Positions 33,905 to 54,807 of a DNA stretch of 64,000 bases are shown here, piece by piece. Position numbers and translations under genes: made by a program. The stretch comes from an uncultured Planctomycetaceae bacterium. GTDB taxonomy: Bacteria > Planctomycetota > Planctomycetia > Isosphaerales > Isosphaeraceae. The DNA lies in the NCBI GenBank assembly GCA_963833985.1, contig CAWIAD010000002.1, positions 1,632,001-1,696,000 of the forward strand. The letters run 5' to 3'. Each line of letters opens with the position of its first letter. The first letter of the stretch is position 1. The notes below the pieces were generated by a model. The model was given only the letters and a program-made list of their open reading frames with translations. It searched no databases and was not told the DNA's origin.

Positions 33905-35626
33905 CAATACCGTTGAAATAGCGTTAACGAAAAGGGGCAAGAGGCTTGCGACAGACTTGTTCCCACGCTCCGCGCTTGTCATTCCCGAGAATTTGTTAAC
34001 ATGGTTGGCTGAATCCTACCAGCATGCTCATGGATGGAACCAACTATGTTCACAGGGATGTCAGTCCACCAGTCCCCGCCCGCCCAATGGGCTCGGATGC
34101 AGTTCGACGGGATCAGGCTCGGCCATTGCACCAGGAGGAATCGCCTCATGGCGTTTGCGGAGGCCCTCGCTGAGCAACCCGGGAAGATGATCCCCGAGTT
34201 GTTCACCCGCAAGTACGACATCAACGCGACCTATGACCTCCTCGACGAACGCGAGGTGGTCCCCGATGCGATCCAGGCGACTCACCGCCGACTGGTGATG
34301 GCCGAACTCCGCAAACCGGGGCGATATCTCCTCATCGAAGACACCACGTTTCCCTCGTTCTCTCATCGCAAGCAGCCAATGCCCGGGCTTGGGCCGATTG
34401 GTGACTCGGAGCCGGGACAGCAGGGCTTTCTCCTCCACTCCATCCTTGCGATGCGTGCCGACTCGTCGCCCGTACCTGATGCGAGCGGTCGTCGGCCCCC
34501 GGTCACGATCCTGGGGCTCGCCGACCAGCAATACCTCATCCGCATCCCGCGGGATCCCGACACGCCGAAACAGGCCGGATCGCGGCAACGGCAGATCCGG
34601 GATCGGGAGTCGGATCGCTGGCTCGAGTCGGGCAAGCGGATTGGCCCGGCGCCAGAGAACCCGGAGGTCCGCTGGGTGCGCGTCGCCGATCGAGAGGCAG
34701 ATATTCATGAGTACATGGAGTCCTGTCGCGCGGCAGGCCACGGTTTCGTGATCCGGGTCAGTCAAAATCGCATTCTGCTCAATCCGGCCGATGGTAAGCG
34801 GCTCGGGCTGGTCTTCGACCACATCGTGGGCGTGGCGCCCGTGGGGGGAATGTATCTGGACCTGCGTGGCCGCGATGGTAAGGCCGCGCAGCGCGCGAAG
34901 CTCCTGATCAGTTGTGGTCCGGTGCGCGTGCGGGCACCCGAGCGTGCGGGCCGCGCGGCCGGCACGGGCGAGCCGATCGACGGCTGGTTCGTGCGGGTCT
35001 GGGAGCAAGACCCGCCTGAAGGCGTCGCGCCGCTGGAATGGGTGCTCTACACGGACAGCCCGACGGAGAGCTTCAGCGCTGCGATCATGGTGGTGATGGA
35101 CTACGGCACACGCTTTCTGATCGAGGAGTTTCACAAGGGCCTCAAGACGGGCATGAAGGCTGAGGATTTGCAGCTGGAGCGGGGCAACCGATTGTTCGCT
35201 GCGATCGCCGTGATGAGCGTGGTGGCGCTTCGGCTGCTGGATCTGCGCGAGCTCGGCAAGGGCTTCCCGGGAGCTCCCGCGGCAAGCACTGGCCTGGAGG
35301 AGCCCGAGCTGGAGGTGCTCGGTCTGGCGGTCGAGCGTGAACTCAAGACCGTGGCAGACGTGTTGCTTGCCCTGGGGCGGCTCGGTGGGCATATGAACCG
35401 GCGACGAGACGGGATGCCCGGCTGGATCACGCTCTGGCGCGGCATGAAGGTGCTCCGGCTCCTCGTAAGGGGAGCAAAGCTTGAGCGCGCGAGAATCAAT
35501 GCACATGTACACCACTAATTGAATACGCATGCATGCAGTTTTCCGGGAATGACAAGCGCAGAGCGCGGGAACAAGTCTGTCGCAAACCTCTTACCCCTTG
35601 TTGTTAACGCTATTTCAACGGTATTG
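33905..35626 (+). mobile_element. Nested element copy 1: IS4-family (Tn5-like) core 33975..35556 inside 70-bp MITE/REP arms
   Basis: Outer ends CAATACCGTTGAAATAGCG; inner 13-bp IR CTTGTCATTCCCG; near-identical inverted copy at 53024..54738. Confidence 0.93.
34034..35518 (+). CDS. IS4-family (IS50/Tn5-like) DDE transposase
   Basis: LLIEDTT, RVADREADI, Y..R..IEEFHKGLKTG, LGRLGGH...DGMPGWITLWRG. Confidence 0.95.
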   Translation: MEPTMFTGMSVHQSPPAQWARMQFDGIRLGHCTRRNRLMAFAEALAEQPGKMIPELFTRKYDINATYDLLDEREVVPDAIQATHRRLVMAELRKPGRYLLIEDTTFPSFSHRKQPMPGLGPIGDSEPGQQGFLLHSILAMRADSSPVPDASGRRPPVTILGLADQQYLIRIPRDPDTPKQAGSRQRQIRDRESDRWLESGKRIGPAPENPEVRWVRVADREADIHEYMESCRAAGHGFVIRVSQNRILLNPADGKRLGLVFDHIVGVAPVGGMYLDLRGRDGKAAQRAKLLISCGPVRVRAPERAGRAAGTGEPIDGWFVRVWEQDPPEGVAPLEWVLYTDSPTESFSAAIMVVMDYGTRFLIEEFHKGLKTGMKAEDLQLERGNRLFAAIAVMSVVALRLLDLRELGKGFPGAPAASTGLEEPELEVLGLAVERELKTVADVLLALGRLGGHMNRRRDGMPGWITLWRGMKVLRLLVRGAKLERARINAHVHH

Positions 35627-35684
35627 ATCGTACACCCGGAACCCGCCCGCCGCGACTCCCGCGAAGGTATTGTGTGCTCAAGGT

Positions 35685-37069
35685 TCAGCGACCGGCGGCC
35701 TGGCCGGGGAAGCCTGAGGCCGGGCGAGAGAAGCTTGAGGCCGGGCCGCTCGCGGCCGTTACGGACGCGTCGGCGCGGCTGCCGTGGGCGGCGAAGAATG
35801 CGATCGCGCGGGGAATGCCGTCGCGAATCATGGGATCGTAGTGGCCGCCCGCCGGTACCCACTCCACCGTCACTTCCTTCCCCGCGCTCTGGAGCGCGGA
35901 GGCAAACGCCTGGGTCTCGCTCACCGGGATGATCGGGTCGTCCTTGGCCTGGAAGAGCAGGACCGGGCACTTCATCGCGCCGGCGTGCTGCGCAGGATTG
36001 TACGTGGTGAGGATCTCGGCGGCGGCAGGAATGACCTGGCCGATCACCGTCCGGGCCATCGCGCTGAAGTTCCCCGTGGTATCGGAGCGCGGGGAGAACG
36101 CCGCGCAGGCCTTGATCCGCGCGTCGTTCTCGGCCAGCAAGAGTGCCATGGTTCCCGCCGAGCTGTGACCGGCGGTGTAAAGGCGACTCGGGGTCGATCT
36201 CGGGGAAGTTCTTGAGCGTCCAGTCGATGGCGGCCCTGGCGTTGGCCAGGCCCGCTCGCGCGGCGACGAATTGCGCAGGCTGGCGGCAGCCGCGGGTCGG
36301 AGAGCTGGTTCACACCGTCAACGTGGCCATCCAGCGAGTACGACACCACGGCATGGCCCGCGGCGACGTAGGGGAAGTGCTCGGCGCGGTCGCCGTCACC
36401 GAGGTCCATCCCGGTGAGGATGATGCTCCCCGCCGGCGCCACAATGACGCACGGGAGCGATCGGGGTGGATGGGTGCCATCGGGAAGGTACACCCAGACC
36501 GTCATATTCATGGTCGCCACATCCTGCCGCCCGGAGGCGCGGACCTGGAAGACGCGAATGCCGGGCCGGATGACCTGTCCCGCGTCGCGTTCCGGGAACG
36601 GGGGCGGGCCGGCCGGTGCCGAGATGACGGCTTGAGGTATGATTGGTGGCGGAACTCCCTGGTCCCCCGCGGGGTTCGCCTGGTTTCCGCGATTCAACCG
36701 CAGCACCACGCGCAGGACAATCATGGCGAGCACGAAGGCACCCCATGAGAGTCCCTTCCGGCTGGTGCCGGAGCCCCCTGCCGCCTTCGCTTTCGCGCGT
36801 CTCTTCACCTCGGCCTTCGTCTTCGGCCCGCTCGCGCCGGGCCCGGCCGCCGGGACAGGCGCACGCGGAGGAAGCATCGGCGCTGGCTCCGACAGCCCGT
36901 ACACGTCCTCGAGCGCACTGACCTCTTCGACTTCCTCGGGCTCCTCGGAGGCCAGCGCAGGCACCTTGATCGCCGCGCCGCAGTGCTTGCAGCGAACGGT
37001 CTTGCCCGCGAACTTCTCCGCCGCCTGGAAACGCTGGCCGCACTGGGTACAACTGAAGGAGATGCTCAT
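35685..37069 (-). CDS. Zinc-ribbon + TM + alpha/beta hydrolase protein, frameshifts near 36190-36270
   Basis: CTQC...CKHC N-terminus, TM, AGHSSAG nucleophile region, DDPII, GGHYD. Confidence 0.78.
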
Positions 37070-37241
37070 CTTTCTACAGGCCCGAAGGGACTTGCGTATG
37101 ACGTCAGGAAGACGATGAGCCTGGAATCATGCACGGTGGTGTGGACGCCGTCAAGAGGTTGCACGGCAACCGGAATGGCGATGTCGAATCAGAGCCACAG
37201 CCGTTGCCGCACCCCCGGCCGGGGTGCGAGTGCACCTGGAG

Positions 37242-40200
37242 TCAACGCGCGGGGCGGAACCTCCAGTCAACGTGGCCAGCGTAGGCAAATGTCTCATCAA
37301 CCAGGGCGAAGAGATCCGGGTCGTGTTCCTTGAGCGCTGCGCGGCCTGCGATCGGGTGTGACGAGCCGGGCGGAGCGGCTTCCTGGCCCATGGCGTCGAA
37401 GTAGGCCAGCACGCCGCTGGCCCAGTATTCCTCGGGGTCGCGCGCCGCGGTGGTCCCCTGCCATTTTCCGGACGCGATGGCCTGCCGGTAGAGCTGAGCG
37501 ACCGTTGCACCAAACCGGACATCGAGCCGCTTGACTCGCAGCTCGTATTGCTGAACGGCCCAGCCGCGATGGTCCCAGTTGGGGTCGACGGGGCGGCTGC
37601 CCGTGACGGCGAGTGCGGCACGGGCAAGCAGGCGGATCACCTGATTCGATCCGACTCCCGGCTCCGCGTGATCTCCGAGCACGTTCTGCTGGTCCACGAC
37701 GACCGTCTTCGTCTCGGGCGTGTACTCGAGGAACCGCACCAGGGGATCGATTGGCTTGCTGCGGAAGTCGCGGTACTCGGGCAGCTCGTCAATCCGCTCT
37801 CCCGGGGCAAGGACCACGAGCTTGACGCCCGCGGCGATGAGCGCCTTGAGGATGTCGTGCCGGTAGGCGAACAGCTTGCGGACGGTGTCATTGGCCTTGA
37901 GCATGGCCTCGTCGCTGGCGCCCCGGCCCACGACCGGAAACTCGCGGGCCCAGGTGAAGCGGGTGTAGAACGGGTCGATTCCCAGTTTCGCCGGAGGCGC
38001 GGCGACGTTCGGCAGCTTCTGCACCCAGCGGTAGCGCCAGTCGTGTTCAGGATCGAGGTTGAAGGTCGTGCGGGCAAGCTCGTAGCCTTCCGGGTCGTAA
38101 AGCTTGAGCTGCTCGCGCGTGCCGACGGGGCCGTGGTTCCAGTTGTTCACCCGGTTGCAGTCGAAGTACGACTGAACGATCTCGGCCCAGTATTCGCCGG
38201 GGTTGCCGGCGGCATAGGCGCCGCGGTACCGGCCCTTCGCGATCGCGTTTTTGTAGACGGACCGGAGCCGGCCGCTCCACGCCGGGTCCATGCCACGCAG
38301 CGTGCCATCGATCGTGTGCGAGAACTCGTGAACGGCGATGCTCTCGTCGTCATAGCGGTCGAGCGGCAGCGAGAGCACGTTCTCCTCGCCGAAGCTGGTG
38401 GGCCGGCCGCCGGTCCCGCGCACCCGTTCGTTCTGGTAGGCAGGGTTGGGATGGTGCCGGTACTCGGGCATGTCCGTGTAAACCTGGTCCTTGCCGATGA
38501 CGATCAGGTACATCTGCGCTTGACCATCGCGCGGATGACGTCGGGCCGGCCGGCCAGCATCGAGTGGACGATCTCCCGGGTACGCTCGAGCGCGCGGTCG
38601 GCGACCTCGGCCGCGGCCGCCACGGGCATGCCGTCGACCTCGAGATACTTCCTGTAGAATGCGCGGGCCGCCTCCCGGTCGCCGGCGGGAACCATCGCGA
38701 AAAACGAATCCGGCGGTGGCGTCACGGCCGCGCCGCTGCTGGTGGACTCTCCACGTGCCGTGTCGACGCGGACGGCCGGCGCGGAGGGCTGTGTCGGCGC
38801 ATTGCGATCGGGGGGTTCCTCGTGGAGCAGGTGCCGGACGAAGAAGTCCTGCATCCGCCGCGTGCCGTAGGCGCCGCCGATGCCGTGGTTGGCGTTCGGC
38901 ACGACAACCAGGTCGAAGTCCTTGCCGGCGCGGATCAGGGCGTCGGCCAGGCGGAGGGTGGACTCGGGGGGCACGTTGGTGTCCATCTCGCCGACGATGA
39001 GCAGCAGCTTGCCGCGCAGCCGCCGGGCGTTGTCGATGTTGGAAGACTCGGCATACCAGGGGCCGACGGGGTATCCCATCCACTGCTCGTTCCATGAGGC
39101 CTTGTCCATGCGGTTATCGTGGCAGCCGCAGGCGGCAGCGGCCACCTTGTAGAAATCGGGATAGAACAGCACCGCGCCGGCGGCGTTCTGTCCGCCCGCG
39201 GAGACGCCGTAGACTCCCAGTCGATCGAGGTCGTAGTAGGGGTATCTGGCTGCGACCGCCCTGTGCCAGAGGATGCGGTCGGGGAAGCCGGCATCCTTCA
39301 AATTGTGCCAGCAGACGTCGTGGAACGCCTTCGACCGGTTGGCCGTTCCCATGCCGTCGATCTGGACGACGATGAAGCCCAGGTCCGTGAGCGTCGAGTA
39401 ACGATTGAAGGGGCTGAAGGTCTTGGGCACGTAGGAGTCTTGCGGACCGGCATAGATGGACTCCACGACCGGATAGCGGCGGGACGGGTCGAGATGCCGC
39501 GGCCGGGCGATCACGCCGTAAATCTCGGTCTTGCCGTCCCGGCCCCGGGCGCTGATCGGTTCCAGGGGCTGCCAGCCGCTCGACCGCAGCCGCGTGATGT
39601 CGGCCTCTTCGAGCTTGCAGACGAGGCCGCCATCGGAGCACCGGCGCAGCTCGTGGACCGGCGGCACATCGACGCGGCTGTACGTGTCGATGAGGTACGA
39701 GCGGTCGGGCGAGAACTGCACCGAGTGGCTGCCGTTGCCCGCGGTGAGCGCGACCAGCCCGGTGCCGTCGAGGTTGACGCGGTAGAAGTGCACGAAGTAA
39801 GGGTCCTGGCCGGGATTCTTGCCTCCCGCGTGGAACCAGACCTGGCGCTTCTCCTCGTCAATGAAATCGATGCCTCGCACGACGTACTCGCCCCGGGTGA
39901 TCGCATTCTTGACCTCGCCCTTGCGGGCGTCGATGAGGTAGAGGTGACGCCAGCCGTCGCGCTCCGATGCGTAGAGGATCTCCGGGGACCCGTCGAGATA
40001 GTTGACGGGCCTGAGGTCGACGTTCTCGGCGTGGGCCGTCCAGATGAACGTCCTGGTCTGCTCGTCGATCAGGTTGCGGGCCTTGCCGGTGTGCGCATCG
40101 ACCTCGATCACCCGCAGTCTCTGATGGCCGCGGTCGATCTTCTCGTAGGTGAACCGGCTGCCGTCCTTGCTCCAGCGCAGCCGCGGCTCGTCGTAATCGA

Positions 40201-41150
40201 CGCGTTCCACCTCGGGTTTGGTCTGCTTTCGTGAGCCGATGTCGAAGAGGTTCAGCTCGTAGGCCGCGAACCGGTCGCCCGGCAAGTCGTAGGGCCGGGT
40301 TCGCAAGCGGGCTCGGCCCCCGCCAGAAGGAGAGGACTGGATCAGGTAGACGTCCTTGTGATCGCCGGGCTCGATACGATGGGCCGCCAGCAGCTTCGAG
40401 TTCGGAGACCAGGACAGCCTGCCGTACGAGAGCTTCTCCTGGCCGTCATGGCTCAGCGCCACCGCCTGCGAATCCGCCTGGTCTGTTGCGCAGCATGACG
40501 TTGTGGTCCTTCACGAACGCCATCCACTTGCCGTCGGGGGAGTGGCGCGCCTCAGCGCCCGCATCTCCCGCCTCGCCAGAGAACCGAGAACGCCGCCGGG
40601 GACTCGCGGGAGCCTCCACCGGAGCATCACCCGCAGCGCCCCTGGTACATTCGTAGCTCGACAGGTCGCACTTCCAGACGGTGTCGTCGATCTTGAACCG
40701 GAGCGTCTTGCCGTCATCTCCGAACGCGATGAGGTCGAACGGCAGGCGCTTGGCGGCCACCGCACGTCCGAGCGCCTTCGTCGAGCGCGGTGGCCAGCCG
40801 CGCGTGATCGAATGCCGGGCGCGAAGTCCCCGCGGCGCGTCGACGACGATGAACTCGCGGGCTTCGCCGGCCAGGTCGTTGAGATACCAGAAGCGCGCGT
40901 TGCCGGCAAACCAGTGGGGTCGGATCTGATCCTTATCAACGAGCCGCGGCCCTGAACCCTGCGCCCGCCGCGCCTGCGGTGCATCTTGCGGCGCGAACCA
41001 GGGGTCGCCGGGCGGCGGATCCAGGCCCGGGGATTCCACGGGTGCCGTGGCGGCAGCGCCAGCGCTCGTGGTATCGTCCGCGAGAGCGCCGTGGTATGCG
41101 GTGACCAATGGAAGCGATGCCAGGAATACGGCAAGCCAGAACCGGATCAT
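37242..41150 (-). CDS. Secreted DPP-IV/S9 peptidase fused to C-terminal zincin-like domains, several frameshifts
   Basis: Signal peptide, propeller (SERDGWRHLY), IYAGP, DGMGT, GVSAGG, DTNV, NHG; then HEFSH...EYWAE. Confidence 0.82.
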
Positions 41151-41440
41151 GGAACTCTCCCGGAGAACGCGAAACGACGGCGGCCCGCTCCGCGGACAAT
41201 CGAGACGCTACGGCGAAGCGCGCCTGGTTTGTTCCGAGAGTAACAGATTTCGGGCCGTCCGTTAGTCCTCACCCGGCGCGCGGATGCCGGCCGGACAACG
41301 GCGGCTGAGCAGCCGGGTCCAGTCGCCGCGGGTTTGTCTCAATAAAGCCGGTTGCCGCACGAATCGATTGTCGCGGAAGGCGGCATCCCCACTCGCGATC
41401 AGACCGCAAGACCGGACCATCCGGACCAGGAGAGACTCCA

Positions 41441-42154
41441 GTGCGCTACCAGATCCACTATCAACCCTCTTTCAGCATGGCGGTCGTGTCGCTGGAGAGG
41501 GGTGAGCAGATCATGGCCGAGTCCGGAGCCATGGTGAGCATGTCGCCGACGATCCGGATTCAGGCGGCGATGTCGGGTGGCGGGCTGCTTGGCGCCTTCA
41601 AGAGTGCGGTCGGTGGAGAGTCGATCTTCCGGACGACCTTCACGGCCGAGGATGGCCCTGGCGAGATCGCCCTCGCTCCCGCGGCTCTCGGCGACATCAT
41701 GGCGGTCGAGGTGGCCGGCTCGCGCTACTTTGTCCAGCCAGGCAGCTACCTGGCAGGCGACCCCGGCCTGACCTTGAGCGTTCAGGGCACGATGCGGGGC
41801 ATGCTCTCCGGCGAGGGTCTCTTCCTGCTGACCGTGGACGGCAGCGGCCTGCTGCTACTCTCTTCGTTCGGAGCCATCCACACGAAAACCCTGGCTCCGG
41901 GCGAGGAGTATATTGTCGATACCGGGCACATCGTCGCCTTCGAGGGCTCGGTCGGCTACCGTCTCGAGAAGGCGACCGGAAAAAGCCAGGGAGTCGGGGG
42001 CTTCCTCAAGGGGATGGTCCAGTCCGCGCTTTCCGGCGAAGGGTTCGTCTGCCGCTATCGTGGTCCTGGCAAGATCTACATCCAGACGCGGCAGTTGCCC
42101 GGTTTCGCCCGCCAGCTCATTCCGTTCCTTCCGCGGCCGAGCTCCGGAGGATGA
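41441..42154 (+). CDS. TIGR00266/AIM24 family protein
   Basis: AESGAMVSM, GGESIF, SGEGLF, VDTGHIVAF, SGEGFVCRYRGPG.IYIQTR. Confidence 0.92.
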   Translation: MRYQIHYQPSFSMAVVSLERGEQIMAESGAMVSMSPTIRIQAAMSGGGLLGAFKSAVGGESIFRTTFTAEDGPGEIALAPAALGDIMAVEVAGSRYFVQPGSYLAGDPGLTLSVQGTMRGMLSGEGLFLLTVDGSGLLLLSSFGAIHTKTLAPGEEYIVDTGHIVAFEGSVGYRLEKATGKSQGVGGFLKGMVQSALSGEGFVCRYRGPGKIYIQTRQLPGFARQLIPFLPRPSSGG

Positions 42155-42166
42155 GCAGACGGATCG

Positions 42167-43024
42167 TCAGGCGCGCCTCGGCTCGGAGTCGGCTGCGGAC
42201 GCGAAGCCGAGTGCGGCCAGGCGGGCCACCACCTGGGCGTACAGCTCCGGGATCGGCGGGCAGAGCGAGCCGGGCGCGGGGGTCATCCAGTTCATCTGGC
42301 GTAGGTGATCGGTCGGCCACGAGGGCAACGGCGTGCCGAAGGCGAGCGCGGAAGCGACCGACACGAGACCGTCGTTGGGTCCTTCCAGCTCGCTCAGCAT
42401 GGCGTGCAGGCGATGCAGGGGCCATGTGACTTCCGCGGCCGGTGGATCGCCAGCCAGGCTGAAGCAAGGAAGATCGCCGATCTCCCCTTGCAGGCGATGA
42501 AACCGCCGGGCCGACTGCCTGGTGATATCCAGGAAGCCCCGGGGATCCAGCCTCAAGAGCTCCAGCAGGCGGTACACACGGCCGACCCGCAGCTTGGCGA
42601 AATCGGCCAGATGCGTGCCCAGGTGCGGCGTGCCAATGGTCGTCAAGCTGAGCACGCGCTTCCGCCAGTAGGGGTCGGCAAGCAGCAGGCGGGCATCGAG
42701 GCCGCCCATGCTGTGGCCGATGATGTGAACCGGCTCGTCCGGATAGGCGCGGCGGATGCGGTCGCCCAGCCGCCGGGCCCGGAACTCCACGCCGGCGATG
42801 GGATGAACCCGCGTCACCAGCACGCGGTTGCCGGCCGCCCGCAGGTAATCCGGAATCCCCCGGAAGTACGACGTGAGCGTGAGCGGCCCCAGGCCGATGC
42901 GCGAGAAGCCGAAGAGACCGTGTGCCAGCACGAGCGGGGCATGCAGCCGTGCAACCGGGGAAGGCGGTTCGCAGGCGATGTACGACGACGCGGATGCCAT
43001 GGGACTGCCAGGGATGAACTGCAT
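42167..43024 (-). CDS. Triacylglycerol lipase-like alpha/beta hydrolase
   Basis: VLAHGLFGF, HIIGHSMGGLDAR, TTIGTPHLG, NDGLVSV, DH. Confidence 0.9.
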   Translation of the reverse strand: MQFIPGSPMASASSYIACEPPSPVARLHAPLVLAHGLFGFSRIGLGPLTLTSYFRGIPDYLRAAGNRVLVTRVHPIAGVEFRARRLGDRIRRAYPDEPVHIIGHSMGGLDARLLLADPYWRKRVLSLTTIGTPHLGTHLADFAKLRVGRVYRLLELLRLDPRGFLDITRQSARRFHRLQGEIGDLPCFSLAGDPPAAEVTWPLHRLHAMLSELEGPNDGLVSVASALAFGTPLPSWPTDHLRQMNWMTPAPGSLCPPIPELYAQVVARLAALGFASAADSEPRRA

Positions 43025-43085
43025 TCGGCCGGCTCAAGAAAGCTCTATGAATCGATAGAGACAGTATAGACTATGGGTCAGTGGG

Positions 43086-43397
43086 GTGCGTCGTGATTCG
43101 CGTCACGGAAGGGGGAGTGATGCAGGTCCGAGGAATCGTGCAGGCGCCGAGCTGATGGAGAACCCTCCCGGCAGCGATCGGATCGAGATGGTTCTCTGGG
43201 GTCAAGGAGTGGGCCCGAACAAGCCGCGGAGCATCGTCGTGCCCTATGAACTGCTGCTCACCGACACGTCGCTCGAGCCGGAACGCGTTCAGGGGCACGG
43301 CTTCGAGGCGGAGGTCGAACAGGAAGAGAGTGGGCGCTGGATCGCGCGGGAGATTGGCTTTGCCTCCGGACGGGTGCTCCGCCTAGGCGACGGGTAG
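43086..43397 (+). CDS. Hypothetical protein, 5' end uncertain
   Basis: Protein-like C-terminal half (QGVGPNKPRSIVVPYELLL). Confidence 0.5.
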   Translation: MRRDSRHGRGSDAGPRNRAGAELMENPPGSDRIEMVLWGQGVGPNKPRSIVVPYELLLTDTSLEPERVQGHGFEAEVEQEESGRWIAREIGFASGRVLRLGDG

Positions 43398-44582
43398 AGG
43401 CCTGAGCATCGCGGCATCCGCCCAGGGCGGTCCGCCGTTCCTCATGGCGTGGTAGAGCGCCTCGTACCGGTCGACCACCGCTTCCAGCGAGAATTGATCG
43501 GTGGTGCGTTGACGTGCGGCCGATCCCAGGCTCCGGGCGTGCTCGGGATCCCCGAGCAGCTCCAGCAGCGTCGCGGCCCAGGCTTCGGGACGGGCGTCCG
43601 CCACCAGGCGTCCCGTCACGCCGTCGGCCACCAGGTCGGAGTTGCCGCCGATGCCCGATACAACGCAGGGAAGTGCGGTGGCCATGGCTTCCAGCAGCGA
43701 ATTGCTCATCCCCTCGGCCACGCTGGGCAGGACGAAGACGTCCGCCGCGCGGAGGTAATCCGCGGGGTCGGCCACCGCGCCGGCGAACTGGACGCGATCG
43801 GCAATGCCCAGTTCCCTGGCACGCTCGGTGAGCACCTGGCGATCGCTGCCGGGTCCAACCAGGATCAGGCTGGCCGGTACCTTGCGGACCACGAGAGACC
43901 AGGCGTCGAGCAAGAGCGGGACGTTCTTTTGCGGGTGCAGGCGGCCGGTGAAGATCACGCGGGGCCCTTGCAGCAAGTGACTGGCAACCGAGCTGGGCCC
44001 GGGATGAAAATGCTTTGTGTCCACGCCGCTGGCCATACGGACGATGCGCTCGCGGGGAAAACCCAGCTCCCGCCACTGGCGTTCAATTTCCGCGGAGATG
44101 GCCGAGAGGGCGGTGTTGCGCACGATGATCCGCCGAAGCAAGGCAGCGCCGCGGGTGCGCCGCAGCTCGTCGGCCTCGCCGTAATAACCCGCGCTTGCCG
44201 GCTGCACAAGGGTTGGAATGCCGGGCAGCCAGGGGCGGGCCAGCCCCGTGGCGACCGCTTCCCAGAATGCCTGGTGGGTATGGACCACGTCGATCCGCCC
44301 GTGCAGCTTGCGGAGAGCGTGGACGACCCCCGCGACGAAGCTGAGCGCGAAGAGCGGCCCGCGTTTCGAGGTGCGGACGCAGCGATGAATGAGGACGCCC
44401 TGGTAGTCTTCCTCGTCGACCGGGTAGCCGGGGACCGCCTGGGTGACCACGTGCACGGTGTGGCCCCGGCGCACCAGCTCGAGGCCCTGTGCCAGGGCCT
44501 GTCGTTCGGCCCCGCTGGCGAACGGATGGAAATAACTGACGACGTAACAGACGGCAAGAGGAAGCTGCGCGGCATCGGGCAT
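43383..44582 (-). CDS. Glycosyltransferase family 4 protein
   Basis: SGAERQ, FTGRLHPQKNV, DVFVLPSVAEGMSNSLLEAMA. Confidence 0.93.
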   Translation of the reverse strand: MPDAAQLPLAVCYVVSYFHPFASGAERQALAQGLELVRRGHTVHVVTQAVPGYPVDEEDYQGVLIHRCVRTSKRGPLFALSFVAGVVHALRKLHGRIDVVHTHQAFWEAVATGLARPWLPGIPTLVQPASAGYYGEADELRRTRGAALLRRIIVRNTALSAISAEIERQWRELGFPRERIVRMASGVDTKHFHPGPSSVASHLLQGPRVIFTGRLHPQKNVPLLLDAWSLVVRKVPASLILVGPGSDRQVLTERARELGIADRVQFAGAVADPADYLRAADVFVLPSVAEGMSNSLLEAMATALPCVVSGIGGNSDLVADGVTGRLVADARPEAWAATLLELLGDPEHARSLGSAARQRTTDQFSLEAVVDRYEALYHAMRNGGPPWADAAMLRPLPVA

Positions 44583-44607
44583 GGGCGTTGCGGTCCGCGG
44601 CAGCGGC

Positions 44608-44877
44608 TCAGAGATCGGGATCGTGAACGTTCTTCAGGTCCTTGAAATGCGGGTACTGCGCCAGCACCTCGCGGGCGACCCTGGCCTGTGACGCCGGTAC
44701 GTAGATGACGTGCCCGGACTCGAAGCTCAGGCCGCCGAAGGCGGGAGTGGCCAGTGAAGCGTCGCTACGGGCGCAGATCTCTTGCTCGTGCAGCAGCTCG
44801 ACCACCATCGCGGCTTCGAACTCGTTGAGCACCGTGCAGAGCCGGATCTCCGGAACCTCGTTCGTGGATTCTTCCAT
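44608..44877 (-). CDS. DUF2007-like small protein
   Basis: NEFEAAMVVELL..I, IYVP...AREVL pattern. Confidence 0.7.
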   Translation of the reverse strand: MEESTNEVPEIRLCTVLNEFEAAMVVELLHEQEICARSDASLATPAFGGLSFESGHVIYVPASQARVAREVLAQYPHFKDLKNVHDPDL

Positions 44878-45018
44878 CGTCGTCCTCCCGCTTGCCCGTC
44901 ACTCGCTGACCCGCACGCGGGCGAGTCCTGACGGGGAAAAGAGCAGTGGCTACCGGCACGGTCGGAGCCGGGCGAACCTGGTCACAACCGGTTCGCCCGG
45001 CGTCTGGCCGCAAGCGTC

Positions 45019-46325
45019 TCAGCGGGTGATCACCAGACTGGGAATGTCGCGGCCGATGTCGTCGCTGATCAGGCCGTTGCTCACGGTGATCTGGCTGACG
45101 GCATACACGCGCCCGCTGGGCATCGCGACGTTCACTGTCCAGTCGCCGTCGGGCACCTTGACCGCGAAACGTCCGAACGCGTCAGAGAGAGCCACGCGGT
45201 CGGCGTAGGCGTTGGTCCGGCTGGAGACCGTCACCCGCACCCCTTCTTCCGGCTCATTGGTGTCCCGGGTCTTGACCCGGCCGAAGAGCACGTTGCGATA
45301 CGCGCTGGCCATGGTGCGGGTGGAGTAAACGGGCTTCTGAACCACACGCTGCTGACGGTCGGAGCCGGAGCCTGATGCCGCCTCGCCGCCGGGAGCCGGC
45401 TGAAGGTCGTCGCCGGTGGCGGGAGCCGAGGGAGGCTCGACCCCGCTCGGTGTCCCGGAGGCGCCGGGCCTGGGATTTGCCGATTCCGGCTGGACCCTGT
45501 TTGGGGCAGCCGCCGAAGTCCCGCTCTTACCCTGGGCCCCGCCGCTGTTGCGCGGGAGTGCCGTGGATGACTCGCGCGATGGCACCTGCGGCGTGGGCGG
45601 AGAATCGACCGCCCGGGGCGCCGGCGCGCGGCGTTCGAGGCCGCCGCCGTGGGTTTTGCCGGCTCGGTCGCCGGCAGCTCGGGCACATCGGAGCTGGTCG
45701 AGTCTTCGTCGGCCGCCTGGCTCTGCAACGGTGCGGAGCGGGGTCTCGGGCTGGTCCGCGGCGCCGGGGAGGTACTCTGCTCGGACGAGTACATGCGCAC
45801 TTCCGGGGCGGCCGATGCCACCATCTGGCCGTCGCAGCAATCGACCGAACGCGCCGCGGTGTAGCCGGTGGTCACAACCCCTGTATCCAGGACTGTCGGC
45901 GAATAGACTGTCGGCGAATAAAAGGTGGTCGGGTAATAGTAGGTCGTGGGGTAGTAGGCCGTGGTCGGCATGTAGTACGTGGAGACCGGCGAGTAATAGG
46001 CCCGCGTGGTTTCCACCAGCCTGCGCCCGAACAATCCCCTGCGGCGGAACCGCGTTTCATAATACGTGGGGGCCAGGTAGGCCGTCGGCGTCAGCAGGGC
46101 AGACTCGGTGACATAAGCCGTGGCATAGACAGTGGGAATCGCATAAGAGGTCGGCGCCACGATCGAGCCGCCGATCACATAGGAGGTCGGGACCGTCAGC
46201 ACGCTGCTCGTGGGATACCACCCGGCGGATTCCAGGTAAACCACGTCGGCCGCTCTGGTTCGGCCGGTGCAGAGAACCAGTGCCAGCACTGCCCCGATCG
46301 GCAATCGCAAGCCAACAAGCCGCAT
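45019..46325 (-). CDS. Secreted Tyr/Thr/Pro-rich protein with C-terminal carboxypeptidase-regulatory-like domain, frameshift near 45630
   Basis: Signal peptide, YxPT repeats, Pro/Ser linker, C-terminal GRV...SDAFGRF.V.VPDGDWTV. Confidence 0.65.
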
Positions 46326-46709
46326 GATGAAACTCCTTCCAGATGCGTTGCGGGTCCGTGAGAAGATCAGCGTCATGCGTGGGAACCGCTTTCCCTCACG
46401 ATACCAGAACGCTGTGCGGCAACCAAGACACTGTCCTTGCGCAAGGTTTACGGCTCGATGCACTTCCGGTTGGGAAGAATGGGAGGATTGTGACGGGGCA
46501 GCGGTTCAGGGGCGGCCGCGCGGTCCCGGCCATTGGCCTGGCTGTCGCGGAGCCGGCACGCACCGTTCGGCTCGCGGCGGGTGCCGGTTTGCATCCCGGG
46601 CAGTCTTGTGGGATGATCGATAAAGACCGTTGCCAGCATGGTTTTCGGCGGTCTGGGATGTTTCCGCCGGAATGGCCGGCTGGGTGCAACTCCGTGGAGC
46701 AAACCCATC

Positions 46710-46997
46710 ATGTTGAACTCACGCGAGGCCCTCGAGGTCCTGGACCGGGACTTCCTGGAGACACGGTGCAAGATCCTGGAAATTGCCGCTGTGCTGGATC
46801 GGATCGACCGTGCGCCAGCGCTCCATCATGTCCATCCTGATCCTCGGATGGGCCAGATTCGACAATCGCTGGAGGCGCTTTGCGTTCCGGGTCCGGGCCG
46901 TGCCGAGACAATCCAGCGCATCTTCTCGCTGGAGTACGATCCGGACTGGCGGACCGTGATGCGGCTCGCGCCGGCGCGGCCCAGCGACCGACATTGA
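46710..46997 (+). CDS. Hypothetical protein upstream of the TatD-like gene
   Basis: GGAG RBS; LDRDFLETRCKILEIAAVLDRIDRA...RAETIQRIFS. Confidence 0.7.
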   Translation: MLNSREALEVLDRDFLETRCKILEIAAVLDRIDRAPALHHVHPDPRMGQIRQSLEALCVPGPGRAETIQRIFSLEYDPDWRTVMRLAPARPSDRH

Positions 46998-47071
46998 ACC
47001 ACCCGGAAGGGTGGAGCCAGCCATTGCTCACGAACTGATGTGGTGATTCACCCGGCAGAAGGGGGTACGCC

Positions 47072-47907
47072 ATGCACTACGTTGATCCCCACATTCACAT
47101 GGTTTCGCGCGTCACCGACGACTACAAACGGATGGCGCTGGCGGGGTGCGTGCTGGTCAGCGAGCCGGCGTTCTGGGCGGGTTTCGACCGCTCCGGGCCG
47201 GAGGGTTTTCGAGATTACTTCCGGCAACTGACGGAGTACGAGCGGAAGCGCGCCGCCGCCTACGGCATTGAACATCGCTGCTGGCTGTGCATCAACGCGA
47301 AGGAGGCCGAGAACGTCGCGCTGTCGCGTGAGGTGATCGCGATGATCCCCGAGTTCATCGATTGCCCGGGCGTTCTGGGCATTGGCGAGATTGGCCTGAA
47401 CAAGAACACCCGCAACGAGTCGGTGGTTTTCCAGGAGCATCTCGACCTGGCGGCCCGGCTGGGCGAGCTGGTCCTGGTGCACACTCCGCATCTGGCCGAC
47501 AAGTACCAGGGAACGCGCATGATCCTGGACATGATCGCCGCCGAGCCGCGGATCGCGCCGGAGCAGGTCTGCATCGACCATGTCGAGGAGCACACGATTC
47601 GCCTGGCTCTCGAGGCGGGTCACTGGGTCGGCATGACGCTCTATCCGATCACCAAGTGCACGCCCGCCCGGGCCGCCGACATGATCGAGCTGTACGGCCC
47701 GCAACGCATCATGGTGAACTCGGCCGGCGACTGGGGCCACAGCGACCCGCTGGCCGTTCCCGAGCTCATCTTCGAGCTGCGCCGCGCGGACACGAAGAGG
47801 CTCTGATCCGCCAGGTCGTCCATGACAACCCCCTGACCTTCTTTGCCCAGTGCGCCAGGTTCCGCTTCCAATCGCTGGCGGAAGCCGGTGCCGCGGCGGG
47901 TCGATGA
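47072..47907 (+). CDS. TatD-family hydrolase (EboB-like), frameshift near 47790
   Basis: DPHIHMVSRVTDDY, EPAFW, GIGEIGL, VHTPH, IDHVEE, NSAGDWG.SDPL. Confidence 0.88.
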
Positions 47908-48272
47908 CCACGGCCTCACCGGCACAGGCGGAGCGGACAACCGAAGGTCGCGGCGTGTGCGGGTTTGCCTGGAGCTCCAGACTCCTGAGTGCTCCCCGAG
48001 GCGTTCGTCAGGAGGCGCGTTGCGCTGTTCCCGGGCAAGGGCGAGATTGCTTGACGGCGCTCCGGAGCATTGCGAAGAATAACAAGGTCTGCCTCAGCCG
48101 ACATGCCCGGCACAGCACGCTTTGTTCCATCGCCACTGTTCTCGGCAGGAATGCGAGGCACGTCGGTGGAGCGCATCATCCCTGGCGGGTAACATCGGGA
48201 GTGCCGCAGGTCCTGTAAGCTCCCGATCCTGCCAGCCCGGACGACGAACGCACGGAGAGAAGGCGATCGCTG

Positions 48273-51069
48273 ATGAAGAGCCGCACCAAGATTGCCGCCC
48301 TCCTGGGCGTTCTCATCCTCCTCGTTGCCGGCGGCCTGCTCGCGACGACGGTGCGGGAGAGCCTCTGGCCGGACGAATCGCTGGAAGGACGGGTCCGTCA
48401 ACTGGACAGCCGCTGGGCCGCCCAGCGCCGCGCGGCGGCCACGGGACTGGCCCGTTACACGGCGTCCCCGGACACGGTCGTCCCCGCGCTCACCCGGGCA
48501 CTCGATGACCCCGACGCGGAGGTGCGGCGTAACGCCCTCGAATCGTTCGCTGCGTTCGCCGACAAGTCTCGCCCGGCGGTTCCCGCGCTGAGGCTCACGA
48601 TGAAGCAGGATCCGGACCCGGCGATTCGCAGGGAAGCGATGGCGCTGCTGGGGCGCATCAAGGATCGGGACTCGGTTCCCGCGCTGATCCAGGCGCTCGA
48701 TGACGAAGCGGGTGCGACCCAGGTGCAGGCGGTCCTGAGCCTGGGGCAGTTCGGCCCGGCCGTCGCCACGGAGCCGCTCATCGCCAGGCTGCGCTCCACC
48801 CTGCTCGAAAGCAAGAACGAGCTGTTGCGCCTGGCGGCCTTGGACGCGCTCGATTCGCTGCGCGCGGCAATGAATCCGTCGCCCATGCCGTTTCGGAGGC
48901 CGCGGTCAAGGACCCGAGCACACCACTGCGGGCCAGGGCCGTGAACATCCTGGACGCGAAATACCCGTTCGTCGTACCGGCCCTGCTCGCCGCCCTCGAC
49001 GACGCGCAGCCGCAGGTCCGGATGGCGGCGGGAAGCCGGCTGGCGCTCATCGGGCTGACCGACGACCGCACGGTCCCCGCGCTCTGCCGGCTGGCGCTCA
49101 AGGCGGATGATCTGAACCGTGAGACTGTCGGGGTCATCTTCGGACAGCTCACTCTCGTCCGGCCCAGCGGACCGACCTCCGCGGATCAGCTCGGGCGGAG
49201 ATTCGAGACAGCCGTGCAAGAGCTTCGAAGCGTCGTCGAACGGCGAGAGGCGGGCGGCCGGGCGGCTGTCGTCGCGGTGCTGGGGCGGATTGTCGGAAGC
49301 TACGAGAAGTCCGGCGAGCCGGCCCTGCTGGCGCCGGCACGCGCGGTGCTCGAAACCCTGCTCGCGCGCATCGAGGATCCCCAGGAGGACCTCTCGCTAC
49401 GGCTCGACGCCATGGGCCAGTGGCCCATGCTCCAGATGATGGTTCAGAACAGAAAAGACACGCACACCAGCGCGCTGCACGCCACAGCTTTATGGATTGC
49501 GTCCCTGGGCAGGGTGCTCGCGGACCCTGCGCTTGAGGTGCGGGGCAAGGCCATGGTCAGCCTGCTGGAGAGCTTCCAGGATCCGCTGCCCGATGGTGCC
49601 TTCCGGCAGACCTGGCAGGGCCTGGTTCCCACCATGGTGAAGGCGGCCGCGAGCGACGACCTGCGGGTCCGAACCGGTGCCTTGCTCGTGCTCAAGCAGC
49701 TTGGTCCCGTGGCCGAGCCGGCACTTCCCGCCCTGCGCCACTGGCCAGCCAGGCCCACGATCCCGCGGCCTCCGAGCAGATCGAAGCGGCCATCCGTTCG
49801 GCCTCGATCAGCGACAGGCTCCAGCGCGGCGATCCCGCGGCCCGCATCGCTGCATCCCAGGACCTGGGGCAGCTTGGCTGGCGCGCTGCGCCGACCGTAC
49901 CGCTGGTTCTCGTTCTGCTCAAGGCACCACAGGACGGCGTTCGCCTGGCTGCCGTGGCGGCGCTCAAGGCCCTCGTGACCAAGGACCTTGCCGCCGTCTC
50001 CGCACTGACCGCAGCGCTTCGGGCCGAGGCCGAGGCGCCGGTACGCGTGGCGATTCTCGAGGCTCTGGAAACCGTGGCGCCGGGGACCCGCCAGGTCCTC
50101 GACGCGCACGTCGAGGCGCTCAAGGATCGCGATCCCCGGGTTCGCGAGGCGGCGGCGCACTTCGGCCGGGTCCCCACCGACGACGCGGTCCTTGCCGCAC
50201 TCAAGTCCGCCCTGGATGATGACAGCGAGCCGGTGCGGGCGGCCGCTTCCCGCAGCCTGTGCGAGATCATGTTCCTGAAGCCTCAGGTCATTCCCACGCT
50301 GATTCAGGCGCTGGGCGAAAGCGCCCAGTGCCAGAACGTGGCGACGGCCCTGGACGAGCATCTCCAGCAGGTTTCCGATCGGGCCGAGTTTGGCCGCCTC
50401 AGGGGCGACCTTACGGGACTGCGGGCAACGCTTGCCAGCGCGGTCCCCGCGCTCCAGAAGGCGGTCACGTCCGATGGCGCCGAGCGCCGGGCTCGAGCCT
50501 TCGAGATCCTGGGGCGGATTACCGCCTTCTCCGATCTGAACCGCGACGCCGAGCTGCTGAAGGCCATTGAACCGGCCATCGGGCCCTACCTCGTCGGGCT
50601 CGAGAGCGACGACCCCGGGGTCCGCCGGGGAGTGCTGGGCCGGCTTGGCTCTATCGGTATTCACCGCGCCCGGATCGTGGGGCTGCTGCTCGGCGAGCTG
50701 GCGCGGCCGGGGCTCAACGAGGACGACCGCCAGGCCGCCCTGGCGGCGCTGGCTGCCCAGGCCACGCACGCCGGGGGCGACTCCGAACTGCACACGGCGC
50801 TTTTGCCCGCGATTCCGGAACTGGCCACGGCGCTCGAATCCCCGGCGGCAGAGCTTCGCGGCCGGGCGGTGGTGGCGCTTGGCCATATTGGCAGCGCTGC
50901 CCGGCCGGCCCTGGAGACTCTTCGCAGGCTGGCGGAGCATGACCCGGACGCAGGCATCCGCAGGAACGCCGCGGACGCCGTGAGGGCCGTCGAGGGGACC
51001 GCCCCGATGCCGGTTTCCAGCCCCCGCGGTGCTGGTGCGGGCGCGGCGCGGCCGCGGAGGATCGAGTGA
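48273..51069 (+). CDS. Membrane-anchored HEAT-repeat protein, paralog of 23115..25940, frameshifts near 48860-48940 and 49740
   Basis: Colinear with the 941-aa protein (e.g. VLGRIVGSYEKSG, DDRTVPALCR, APGTR.VLDAH). Confidence 0.88.
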
Positions 51070-53006
51070 CGGCCATGTCCGCGGCTCATGTCCAGGCGAA
51101 GCAGCAGACAACGGCGCCCGCGGGTCGCGGCCTGAGCGTCCTCAGCGTGCTCGCCCTGGCGGTCTGGCTGGGCATGGCCGCCGGGCTGCTGGAAGTCGCC
51201 ATCCGGGTCCTCTTCCGGTCCATTTCCCCGACCGGCCGCCTTTACCTGGTGAGCCGGCACTTCGTCTGGCTCACGCCGCTGGCCAACGTCGTGCTCTTCC
51301 TGGGGGTCGGCCTCGTGCTGGCCCTGCTGGCCAAGGTCTGGCCAAAGCTGGGGAGCTGGCTCTGCCCCCGGTTCCTGCTGGCCCTGGCGCTGCTGCCCGC
51401 ACTCGCGGTCGCCGTCCCCAACATCTTCCCCGAGGCCTGGTTTCTCCTGAGCCTGGGAATCGCCGTCCGGACGGTCCCCTTGCTCCAGGCCCACGCGCAG
51501 CGCCTGCGTGCGGCGTTCATCTGGGGCTTTTTCTTGCAGGCCGCGGTGATCGTGCTGCTGGCGGGGTCGGTCGTTGCGAGCGACTGGATCAAGGAGCGCC
51601 GCGAGCAGGCCCGCGCCTTACCGCCGGCCGGCGCGGCCAATGTGCTGCTCATCGTCCTGGACACGGTTCGCCAGGATCATTTGAGTCTCCATGGCTATCG
51701 CCGTCCCACCACGCCGGTGCTCGAGCGCCTGGCCCGCCGCGGGATCCGCTTTGATGCGGCCCGGGCGACGGCCCCCTGGACCCTGGCCTCGCACGCCAGC
51801 CTGTTCACGGGCCGCTGGCCCCACGAGCTTGGCGTCACCTGGCTCTCGCCAATCCGCAACGAGTCTCTCACGCTCGCGGAATACCTCGCGGACCACGGCT
51901 ACGCCACCGCCGGTTTCGTGGCGAACACGCAGTATTGCTCCTACGACACCCGGCTCGATCGCGGATTCGCGCACTACGAGGACTACGTGGACGAGTGGCT
52001 CAGTCCGCTCCGCATGTCGTTGGTGTTCCGCGAGTTCTTCACGGCCTTCTCGGAGCTCGCCTCGTACCACCCGAGCGGCCCCATCCACTCCATCCAGGGG
52101 CTGCTCACGCGCTGGTCGTGCTACGGGATCCGCAAGGACGCGGAGCGCGTCAACCACAGCTTCTTGACGTGGCTGGACCGGCGGAAGCAGCCGGATCGTC
52201 CCTTCTTCGCCTTTCTCAACTACCTGGATGCCCACGCACCTTATGAGCTGCCTCCGGCGGGGAGCTATGTGTTCGGCCGCAAGCCCCAGACCGACGACGA
52301 GCTGAGCCTCGTGAACGATCTCTGGCCGTTCCTGGATAAATCGAAGCTGCCACGTTCCTATGTGAACCTGGCGGCTGACTGTTATGACAGTTGCATCGCT
52401 TACCTGGACAGGCGCCTGGGCGAGCTGTTCGATGAGCTAGCGCGGCGCGGCACGCTCGAATCCACGTGGATCGTGATCACCTCGGACCACGGAGAGGGAC
52501 TGGGCGAGCATGGTCTGTTCTTGCATGGCGAGAGCCTCTTTGCCACGGAGATCCACGTGCCTTTGCTGATCGTGCCGCCGGCAGGCCGCGCGGCAGCGGC
52601 CGTGGTGCCCCAGCCCGTCAGCCTGCGGCAGGTGCCGGCCACGGTGGCCGATGTGCTCGGGCTGGAGCAGGGCCAGCCGTTCCCCGCCCGCTCGCTGGCG
52701 AGTCTCTGGACCCGGGGCGTGCCGAGCCCTGGACAGGACGACCCGGAACCCGCGTTCTCGGAGCTTCTGAGCCCGAATCCGAGCGACCCGAACCAGGGCA
52801 GATCCCCGGCGCATCGCGGCCCGCTCATCGCCCTGGCCGAAGAACAATTCGTGTACATCCGCAACCAGCGTGATGGCGGCGAGCAGCTCTTCGACCGGCT
52901 CGACGACCCGCGCGAGCTGACCAACCTCGTATCCAGAGAGGCGATGCAGCCGGTGCTCAGGCGGTTCCGCGATCACCTGCGCCAGGCGTTTCCCCACTTA
53001 CGTTGA
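51066..53006 (+). CDS. Membrane-bound sulfatase-like / alkaline-phosphatase superfamily protein
   Basis: About 5 N-terminal TM helices, NVLLIVLDTVR, WTLASHASLFTG, FLNYLDAH.PY, TSDHGE, HG, VPLLI. Confidence 0.88.
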   Translation: MTAMSAAHVQAKQQTTAPAGRGLSVLSVLALAVWLGMAAGLLEVAIRVLFRSISPTGRLYLVSRHFVWLTPLANVVLFLGVGLVLALLAKVWPKLGSWLCPRFLLALALLPALAVAVPNIFPEAWFLLSLGIAVRTVPLLQAHAQRLRAAFIWGFFLQAAVIVLLAGSVVASDWIKERREQARALPPAGAANVLLIVLDTVRQDHLSLHGYRRPTTPVLERLARRGIRFDAARATAPWTLASHASLFTGRWPHELGVTWLSPIRNESLTLAEYLADHGYATAGFVANTQYCSYDTRLDRGFAHYEDYVDEWLSPLRMSLVFREFFTAFSELASYHPSGPIHSIQGLLTRWSCYGIRKDAERVNHSFLTWLDRRKQPDRPFFAFLNYLDAHAPYELPPAGSYVFGRKPQTDDELSLVNDLWPFLDKSKLPRSYVNLAADCYDSCIAYLDRRLGELFDELARRGTLESTWIVITSDHGEGLGEHGLFLHGESLFATEIHVPLLIVPPAGRAAAAVVPQPVSLRQVPATVADVLGLEQGQPFPARSLASLWTRGVPSPGQDDPEPAFSELLSPNPSDPNQGRSPAHRGPLIALAEEQFVYIRNQRDGGEQLFDRLDDPRELTNLVSREAMQPVLRRFRDHLRQAFPHLR

Positions 53007-53023
53007 CCCCCTGGCCATGGGCC

Positions 53024-54738
53024 CAATACCGTTGAAATAGCGATAAGTTGATTGCAGGCATAAGTTTGTCCCTCGTCCCCACGCTCCGCGCTTGTCATTC
53101 CCGGAAAACTGCATCCATGTATATGCAATTAGTAGTGTACATGTGCATTGATTCTCGCGCGCTCAAGCTTTGCTCCCCTTACCAGCAGCCGGAGCACCTT
53201 CATGCCGCGCCAGAGCGTGATCCAGCCGGGCATCCCGTCTCGTCGCCGGTTCATATGCCCACCGAGCCGCCCCAGGGCAAGCAACACGTCTGCCACGGTC
53301 TTGAGTTCACGCTCGACCGCCAGACCGAGCACCTCCAGCTCGGGCTCCTCCAGGCCAGTGCTTGCCGCGGGAGCTCCCGGGAAGCCCTTGCCGAGCTCGC
53401 GCAGATCCAGCAGCCGAAGCGCCACCACGCTCATCACGGCGATCGCAGCGAACAATCGGTTGCCCCGCTCCAGCTGCAAATCCTCAGCCTTCATGCCCGT
53501 CTTGAGGCCCTTGTGAAACTCCTCGATCAGAAAGCGTGTGCCGTAGTCCATCACCACCATGATCGCAGCGCTGAAGCTCTCAGTCGGGCTGTCCGTGTAG
53601 AGCACCCATTCCAGCGGCGCGACGCCTTCAGGCGGGTCTTGCTCCCAGACCCGCACGAACCAGCCGTCGATCGGCTCGCCCGTGCCGGCCGCGCGGCCCG
53701 CACGCTCGGGTGCCCGCACGCGCACCGGACCACAACTGATCAGGAGCTTCGCGCGCGCGCGGCCTTACCATCGCGGCCACGCAGGTCCAGATACATTCCC
53801 CCCACGGGCGCCACGCCCACGATGTGGTCGAAGACCAGCCCGAGCCGCTTACCATCGGCCGGATTGAGCAGAATGCGATTTTGACTGACCCGGATCACGA
53901 AACCGTGGCCTGCCGCGCGACAGGACTCCATGTACTCATGAATATCTGCTTCTCGATCGGCAACGCGCACCCAGCGGACCTCCGGGTTCTCTGGTGCCGG
54001 GCCAATCCGCTTGCCCGACTCGAGCCAGCGATCCGACTCTCGATCCCGGATCTGCCGTTGCCGCGATCCGGCCTGTTTCGGCGTGTCGGGATCCCGCGGG
54101 ATGCGGATGAGGTATTGCTGGTCGGCGAGCCCCAAGATCGTGACCGGGGGCCGACGACCGCTCGCATCAGGTACGGGCGACGAGTCGGCACGCATCGCAA
54201 GGATGGAGTGGAGGAGAAAGCCCTGCTGTCCCGGCTCCGAGTCATCAATCGGCCCAAGCCCGGGTATTGGCTGCTTGCGATGAGAGAACGAGGGAAACGT
54301 GGTGTCTTCGATGAGGAGATATCGCCCCGGTTTGCGGAGTTCGGCCATCACCAGTCGGCGGTGAGTCGCCTGGATCGCATCGGGGACCACCTCGCGTTCG
54401 TCGAGGAGGTCATAGGTCGCGTTGATGTCGTACTTGCGGGTGAACAACTCGGGGATCATCTTCCCGGGTTGCTCAGCGAGGGCCTCCGCAAACGCCATGA
54501 GGCGATTCCTCCTGGTGCAATGGCCGAGCCTGATCCCGTCGAACTGCATCCGAGCCCATTGGGCGGGCGGGGATTGGTGGACTGACATCCCTGTGAACAT
54601 AGTTGGCTCCATCCATGACCATGCTGGTAGAATCCAGCCAACCATGTTAACACATTCGCGGGAATGACAAGCGCGGAGCGTGGGAACGAGGGACAAACCT
54701 ATGCCTGCACTCAACTTATCCCTATTTCAACGGTATTG
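53024..54738 (-). mobile_element. Nested element copy 2: IS4-family core 53091..54671 inside 67-bp MITE/REP arms
   Basis: Same outer and inner IRs as copy 1; core near-identical and 1 bp shorter. Confidence 0.93.
53129..54612 (-). CDS. IS4-family transposase copy 2, 1-bp deletion near 53755 (error or inactivation)
   Basis: Near-identical to 34034..35518; GCGCAGCGCGC in copy 1 versus GCGCGCGCGC here. Confidence 0.9.
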
Positions 54739-54807
54739 GGGTGTACGATCGATCGATCCTGGATCGTTCGACCGCGGATCCTGAACTGCCCGGGGAGGTT
54801 CCGTTGC

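Follow-up and report, generated by a model that had tools for sequence, protein, structure and literature searches.

In the long-term evolution experiment with Escherichia coli, about 70% of 110 large rearrangements, 19 inversions included, came from recombination between copies of insertion sequences (ISs) (PMC4173774), and such IS-IS inversions are reported to leave no signal in short reads (PMC5009759). For IS26, split target-site duplications have been set out as a tracer of inversions (PMC4471558). The IS4-family element ISRm22 of Sinorhizobium meliloti lies in repetitive extragenic palindromes (REPs), and its mismatched repeats were explained by recombination between copies (PMC1525189); duplications missing after recombination or adjacent deletion are also covered in PMC11708052. 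Both the swapped-duplication pattern and the mechanism of IS-IS recombination are already published (PMC1525189, PMC4471558, PMC4173774). Here we describe a locus of this kind in an uncultured Planctomycetaceae bacterium, whose 10.16-Mb genome is assembled in two contigs (C1 and C2). In the window, which is the whole stretch of 64,000 nucleotides that was analysed (C2:1632001-1696000; positions below are those of the window unless a contig is named), an IS50-like element occurs twice in inverted orientation, each copy nested in a miniature inverted-repeat transposable element (MITE), and the two copies bound a segment of 17,375 bp (35638-53012, unstranded). We consider it likely that this segment was reversed by one homologous crossover inside the two IS copies.

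The locus resembles the IS-IS inversions reported in E. coli in that inverted IS copies bound the segment, no new types of junction are created, and the event is invisible to short reads (PMC4173774, PMC5009759). It differs from those of the long-term experiment in its size, 17 kb against segments of 164 kb to 1.8 Mb (PMC4173774), and in being deduced from one genome. The nested MITE also adds a second, independent record of the event, kept in the types of its ends. Some surprise lies only in the nesting of the two elements and in the repeated disappearance of the MITE middle.

Exchanged flanks of two nested elements

The first unit (copy 1) spans 33905-35626, and the second (copy 2), which is reversed relative to it, spans 53024-54738. 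Their right flanks, at 35627-35637 and 54739-54749, are exact reverse complements of each other (11/11), and the left flank of copy 1 (33894-33904) is identical to the reverse complement of the left flank of copy 2 (53013-53023) at 10 of 11 positions. The single mismatch is the base adjoining the tip of copy 2, and the duplication on this side may equally consist of 10 bp and one extra base. Direct flanks are absent at both copies, with 7 mismatches in 11 positions at each. An earlier note on this DNA had described these flanks and the lack of matching direct repeats, and its coordinates and letters were correct. With x and y for the two target sites and rc for a reverse complement, the window reads x (33894-33904, + strand), rc(y) (35627-35637, - strand), rc(x) (53013-53023, - strand) and y (54739-54749, + strand). 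Here x is the left copy of the MITE target duplication of site 1 and y the right copy of that of site 2, and rc(x) and rc(y) would be their displaced partners. The junction at y is also present in an independent short contig.

We compared these matches with 3,048 non-cognate pairs formed from the 79 MITE ends of the genome. In the 11-bp register, the two flank pairs of the window are the only ones with at most one mismatch. In the 10-bp register, four unrelated pairs differ at one base, and an additional exact match comes from a true cognate MITE pair that was missed because ends were paired into copies with a distance limit of 3 kb. By our own arithmetic, this background of about 4 in 3,045 per flank pair gives roughly 2e-6 for both reciprocal matches. 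Hence, the double match is not due to chance.

The earlier note had treated each 1.7-kb unit as a single element that made the duplications. We found otherwise: each unit is an IS that sits within a MITE of 128/230 bp, in its palindromic, REP-like hairpin, and the duplications are those of the MITE. We rejected a single IS whose terminal repeats measure 83 bp, since the outermost 70 bp of the units recur about 40 times in the genome without the IS or any transposase. A 1.72-kb composite moving as a unit was also rejected, as the halves of the MITE and the orientation of the IS vary by site while the IS bodies are about 99% alike. The MITE has a 17-bp terminal repeat and two unlike arms, named A and B, each of them backed by a palindromic REP-like hairpin. 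It is short, non-coding and multi-copy, with terminal inverted repeats and duplications of 10-11 bp. The 79 ends form 33 paired copies, mostly of 128-238 bp, and leave 13 ends unpaired. At 10 bp, 17 of the 33 paired copies have a duplication with at most two mismatches, against 2 of 33 at 11 bp. The swap of target duplications that the earlier note proposed is borne out, and the usual length is 10 bp instead of the 11 bp it gave. Because the IS lies inside the MITE, it is the MITE that made the 10-11-bp duplications now swapped, and the homology that recombined is that of the IS.

The end types of the MITE bear the same mark. Thirty of the 33 paired copies have one end of each type (A..B) and one has an untyped end; the only A..A and B..B combinations are the two window copies. 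At site 1, an A-type end (33905-33965, + strand), made of the terminal repeat, the A arm and half a hairpin, is followed by a 9-bp hairpin core (33966-33974, + strand) and by the first inner IS (33975-35556, + strand, 1,582 bp). Beyond it comes another 9-bp core with a second A-type end (35557-35626, - strand), which would come from the site-2 MITE. At the far boundary, a B-type end with its core (53024-53090, + strand; core at 53082-53090), which would come from site 1, precedes the second inner IS (53091-54671, - strand, 1,581 bp) and then the core and B-type end of the site-2 MITE (54672-54738, - strand). The cores on either side of the first IS (33966-33974 and 35557-35565) are inverted and not direct. 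A crossover at the hairpins that preceded the insertion of the IS predicts direct 9-mers around each IS and was rejected, since those found are inverted. Un-inverting the segment inside the IS turns both units into ordinary A..B copies of about 1,719 bp, like those at C2:696360 and C2:5958632.

The IS copies are hybrids. The genome has 7 copies of the inner IS, and the two of the window are the most divergent of the 21 pairs (23 differing sites, 98.5% identity), with identical tracts of 396 and 308 bp between them. When their 3' parts are swapped anywhere in columns 917-1487, the best parsimony tree needs 41 steps in place of 46, and after this un-swapping the site-1 copy differs from the copy at C2:5958703 at only 4 sites. 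As a safe crossover interval we infer IS positions 723-1487 (34697-35460 in copy 1 and 53187-53949 in copy 2, both unstranded), or 917-1487 if a 1-bp deletion in copy 2 is real; the longest identical tract, of 396 bp, lies inside it. The locus has, in all, the inverted IS copies, the exchanged duplications and the hybrid copies of an IS-mediated inversion.

In the order of events that we favour, two MITEs would have inserted at x and y in the same orientation, each leaving a duplication of 10-11 bp. The IS50-like element would then have entered the REP-like hairpin of each MITE separately, in opposite orientations, and the MITE middle would have been lost at both sites, by adjacent deletion or recombination. 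Host recombination, likely of the RecA type, would finally have crossed over within the interval given above, with x-A-IS-A'-rc(y) ... rc(x)-B-IS-B'-y as the outcome. The flanks, the A..A and B..B ends and the chimeric IS copies support the claim of the earlier note that the inversion followed both insertions and arose by recombination of inverted copies. The 17-kb segment may possibly still flip, the copies being 98.5% identical with long identical tracts.

The probable inversion and its alternatives

No gene is cut by the inversion breakpoints. The breakpoint at site 1 lies 6 bp past the stop codon of a sulfatase gene (51066-53006, + strand), just before rc(x), and 124 bp before the start of one or more genes encoding TPR and then FG-GAP/ASPIC domains (30859-33769, - strand). 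An ATG inside x was rejected as the TPR start, since it is out of frame; the start is at 33769. In the empty, un-inverted site, the sulfatase stop would lie 141 bp before the co-directional TPR-FG-GAP/ASPIC start, and a DUF1559 gene would come next. The earlier note had proposed to compare gene order in related genomes, and the outcome is mixed. Close homologues of the sulfatase have TPR/FG-GAP/DUF1559-type genes within about 6 kb at 9 of 10 loci, while these genes are 17-21 kb away in the assembled order. Un-inverting would restore the sulfatase to a place beside such genes, which is support and not proof.

Several observations weigh against an inversion. No true orthologous locus was found in 13 congeneric genomes (best DNA identity of 65-72%), the neighbours at site 2 (an S9 peptidase and an isomerase-like gene) do not lie next to each other at any of 3 loci in relatives, and two of the four other close sulfatase matches in this genome are without the DUF1559/FG-GAP neighbourhood. 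The parsimony gain is not unique, as a swap between C1:441498 and C2:5958703 gives 39 steps and one between copy 1 and C2:696427 gives 41. Finally, no read or contig spans an IS, and the orientation in the cell was not observed. Variants are mosaic across the inner IS family, and nothing but the flanks ties the crossover to the window pair. We make this assignment because the reference copies C1:441498 and C2:5958703 have retained A..B ends as well as outer duplications that match or nearly match, and do not share a contig.

Among the alternatives, the one that survives best, and which we nevertheless hold to be very unlikely, is a mis-join: the genome would be un-inverted and the assembler would have crossed from one IS copy to the other, or it would have picked one of two arrangements that coexist in the population. 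A mis-join between IS copies predicts flanks, end types and chimeric haplotypes identical to those seen. The assembly also has frameshifts; an independent short contig lacks one of them, with an extra base at 48859. The earlier note had named long reads across the elements as a check. Searched against 33400-53399 and 35400-55399, the reads gave only near-identical pieces of 150-300 bp; none of them spans an IS or shows a strand-change joint, and one short piece bridges the y junction. The best four read runs contain only 6-12% of the sampled words and give no verdict on orientation. However, the two-contig assembly has three repeats of 6.3 kb placed separately, along with some 200 repeats the size of an IS, and copy-specific variants extend along all 7 inner IS copies. 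We compared 12 pairs of inverted repeats lying at most 150 kb apart. Both duplications are intact at four of them and neither at the window pair; the other 7 are ambiguous or lack one or both. The four intact pairs are 1.75-2.25 kb long and 99.3-99.9% alike, and in two of them the repeats lie just 10 and 19 kb from each other. Duplications are well defined in four IS families, where 49 of 56 copies retain them and no reciprocal swap occurs. This duplication control rests on these four families, since 5 of 20 family representatives had fewer than 3 full copies and the remaining families were set aside for indistinct ends, very short duplications or repeated targets. A general scan over all IS families found 80 exact duplications in 129, with many copies whose ends were indistinct. 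As four longer, more alike and close inverted pairs keep their duplications, an assembly artefact is unlikely.

Even less probable is an inversion driven by the transposase, in which one IS would have moved intramolecularly into the second MITE hairpin and duplicated itself, in the manner of IS26 in trans, with the MITE middles deleted later. The trans pathway is described as leaving the same signature of split duplications, x-IS-rc(y) ... rc(x)-IS-y, but it yields identical copies and splits the duplication of the IS itself (PMC4471558), whereas the copies here are divergent chimeras and the duplications are those of the outer element. Copy 1 does have an intact transposase, and its A..A form would arise in one step. 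Yet identical or sister copies are predicted, and those of the window are the most divergent pair, with a different nearest relative for each half; copy 2 would also require two further deletions. Moreover, IS50/Tn5-type elements transpose by cut-and-paste.

Least of all do we believe in a programmed or frequent switch that would toggle the sulfatase-TPR/FG-GAP arrangement as in phase variation: the breakpoint does fall between these genes, at the distances given above, and the IS repeats remain a recombination substrate, but no integrase, resolvase or invertase domain was found in the 92 translated open reading frames scanned in and around the segment (20 + 72, part of those of the window), no gene is cut, there is no promoter-sized invertible piece, frequent flipping should homogenise the IS copies when no other pair is as dissimilar as that of the window, and IS-IS recombination in E. 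coli is put at about 4.5e-5 per generation for each genome, a rate measured for deletions only (PMC5009759). With no recombinase domain in these 92 translations and a crossover inside 1.58 kb of IS homology, the locus is also unlike invertase-type systems (shufflon, Hin/Fim).

The inner IS and the outer MITE

The inner IS is 1,581-1,583 bp long. The transposase of copy 1 (34034-35518, + strand) is intact, with 494 aa, and scores 254 bits against NF033590 (cut-off of 160). It matches the Tn5-type domain PF14706, with PF02281 below its cut-off, and has a YREK motif of the Y(2)R(3)E(6)K type at residues 357-371 and candidate DDE residues, picked by eye, at D103, D219 and E364. The frame of copy 2 is broken near 53756 by a 1-bp deletion (IS column 916). 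This deletion is common to three IS copies, an independent short contig has the base, and the deletion may be a long-read error. Direct repeats of 9 bp flank 3 of the 7 copies (two exact, one with a mismatch) and are also found at three loci of relatives (L046, L049 and L053). The ends fit the subgroup-IS50 signature CW------Y---CA-A--W at C1, W2, Y9, A16 and W19, and not at position 13, and the length is just above the range of 1,350-1,550 bp given for the subgroup (PMC2266710). From these traits, the element appears to be a member of the IS4 family, of the IS50/Tn5 kind. It has in common with IS50/Tn5 the Tn5-type domains, the YREK motif, the CW start and the 9-bp repeat, and differs in its length and in being strongly target-specific (PMC2266710).

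In relatives, at least one end of the inner IS lies in the same hairpin at 8 of the 13 loci examined and, among the 8 loci of 78% identity or more, at 7. The hairpin-targeting element is conserved across several genera. We take the terminal repeat of the IS (33975-33987 and 35544-35556) to resemble the start of CGTC-type REP repeats. ISRm22 is alike in being an IS4-family element with all copies in a REP palindrome, some of them with mismatched direct repeats (PMC1525189). It has, however, 6-bp repeats and is placed in subgroup IS4Sa (PMC2266710), whereas the element described here is IS50-like with 9-bp repeats, has its hairpin inside a MITE with IS4-subgroup ends, and resides in a planctomycete. 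A literature search found no description of this element, which does not prove it undescribed, ISfinder being outside the search; the letters of the hairpin do not occur in the body of PMC3733652, whose figures or supplements may list the repeat.

The 17-bp end of the MITE also caps autonomous elements of 1,481-1,492 bp with exact 10-bp duplications (7 of 80 fetched loci), and all three of their proteins that were scanned are above the NF033592 cut-off. It matches the subgroup-IS4 signature -AATR--------WTW, with repeats of 10-11 bp (compared with Table 1 of PMC2266710); unlike the members of that subgroup, the MITE is non-coding and has a REP-like body. The MITE appears to derive from another IS4-family element (subgroup IS4), distinct from the inner IS, and was likely mobilised by a transposase of that subgroup whose 17-bp ends are the same. 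A close autonomous parent was not found in this genome, where the best protein match is at 27%. The left end showed no significant folding (z 0.39). Other non-autonomous or cargo elements of 145-2,000 bp have the 17-bp end in common, several of them with exact 10-bp duplications (L084, L086, L087, L141, L107, L118 and L125).

Two more IS types occur in the same MITE (C2:721573, C2:3456650, C2:3745424, C2:4507521, C1:1831900 and C2:2576586). A 1.65-kb element, a candidate IS1182-like IS from reading its protein, lies in the inner hairpin in 5 copies, and one candidate IS66-like element, named on the same basis, lies in the A hairpin; C2:721573-725043 carries two IS types together. A collapsed form of the nested element, with an A half, the IS, a B half, inverted 9-mers and the MITE middle gone, is present at C2:696360-698078 and C2:5958632-5960351, at both window sites once un-inverted, and at L059 and L054 (G058). 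The relative genome G058 has one copy arranged as outer-IS-outer and another as middle-IS-middle, possibly reciprocal products. Another IS4-family element (1.5 kb, 11-bp duplication) has inverted and not direct flanks at 3 of its 10 copies (C2:1901064, C2:3541181 and C1:292135), in a different palindromic repeat. A bolder proposal, which we regard as rather unlikely, is that the IS50-like element, specialised on a REP-like hairpin, frequently connects each of its ends to a separate hairpin, deleting MITE cores and seeding reciprocal rearrangements between dispersed MITEs. The MITE would then be a landing pad for three ISs and a rearrangement hub in planctomycetes, and the 17-kb segment would still be flipping in the population and toggling the adjacency of the sulfatase and TPR/FG-GAP genes.

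Genes of the segment and significance of the probable inversion

Along with the sulfatase, the inverted segment carries genes for S9 peptidases, AIM24, an alpha/beta hydrolase, a GT4 glycosyltransferase, a TatD-like protein and a HEAT-repeat protein. Its GC skew is 0.031, against 0.005 +/- 0.017 for its neighbours, with no replichore signal, and is uninformative for the inversion. Some genes are split over frames, namely the HEAT-repeat gene (three frames, 48273-51069), the TPR/FG-GAP gene (30859-33769), an S9 peptidase (35685-37069) and a DUF1559 gene (21432-22642). Since an independent short contig differs at 48859, at least some of these frame breaks are likely long-read indel errors. The only two HEAT-repeat gene copies of the genome (23115-25940 and 48273-51069) have 50-57% amino-acid identity and opposite orientations, and un-inverting the segment makes them co-oriented, which suggests that a HEAT/DUF1559 module was duplicated locally long ago. 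Elsewhere in the window, a 109-nt intergenic repeat with an internal palindrome has two copies (4075-4183 and 20854-20962, 97% identity) and likely represents another REP/MITE family.

The inversion opens no long-standing question. It provides, from a single genome, a record of one IS-IS inversion in three marks: the duplications, the MITE end types and the IS haplotypes. It would have parted the sulfatase from its usual TPR/FG-GAP/DUF1559 neighbours with no gene cut. The locus may be of modest use to IS specialists, as it presents an IS50-like element that appears to target hairpins and a REP-bodied MITE that can be traced to a probable IS4-subgroup parent.

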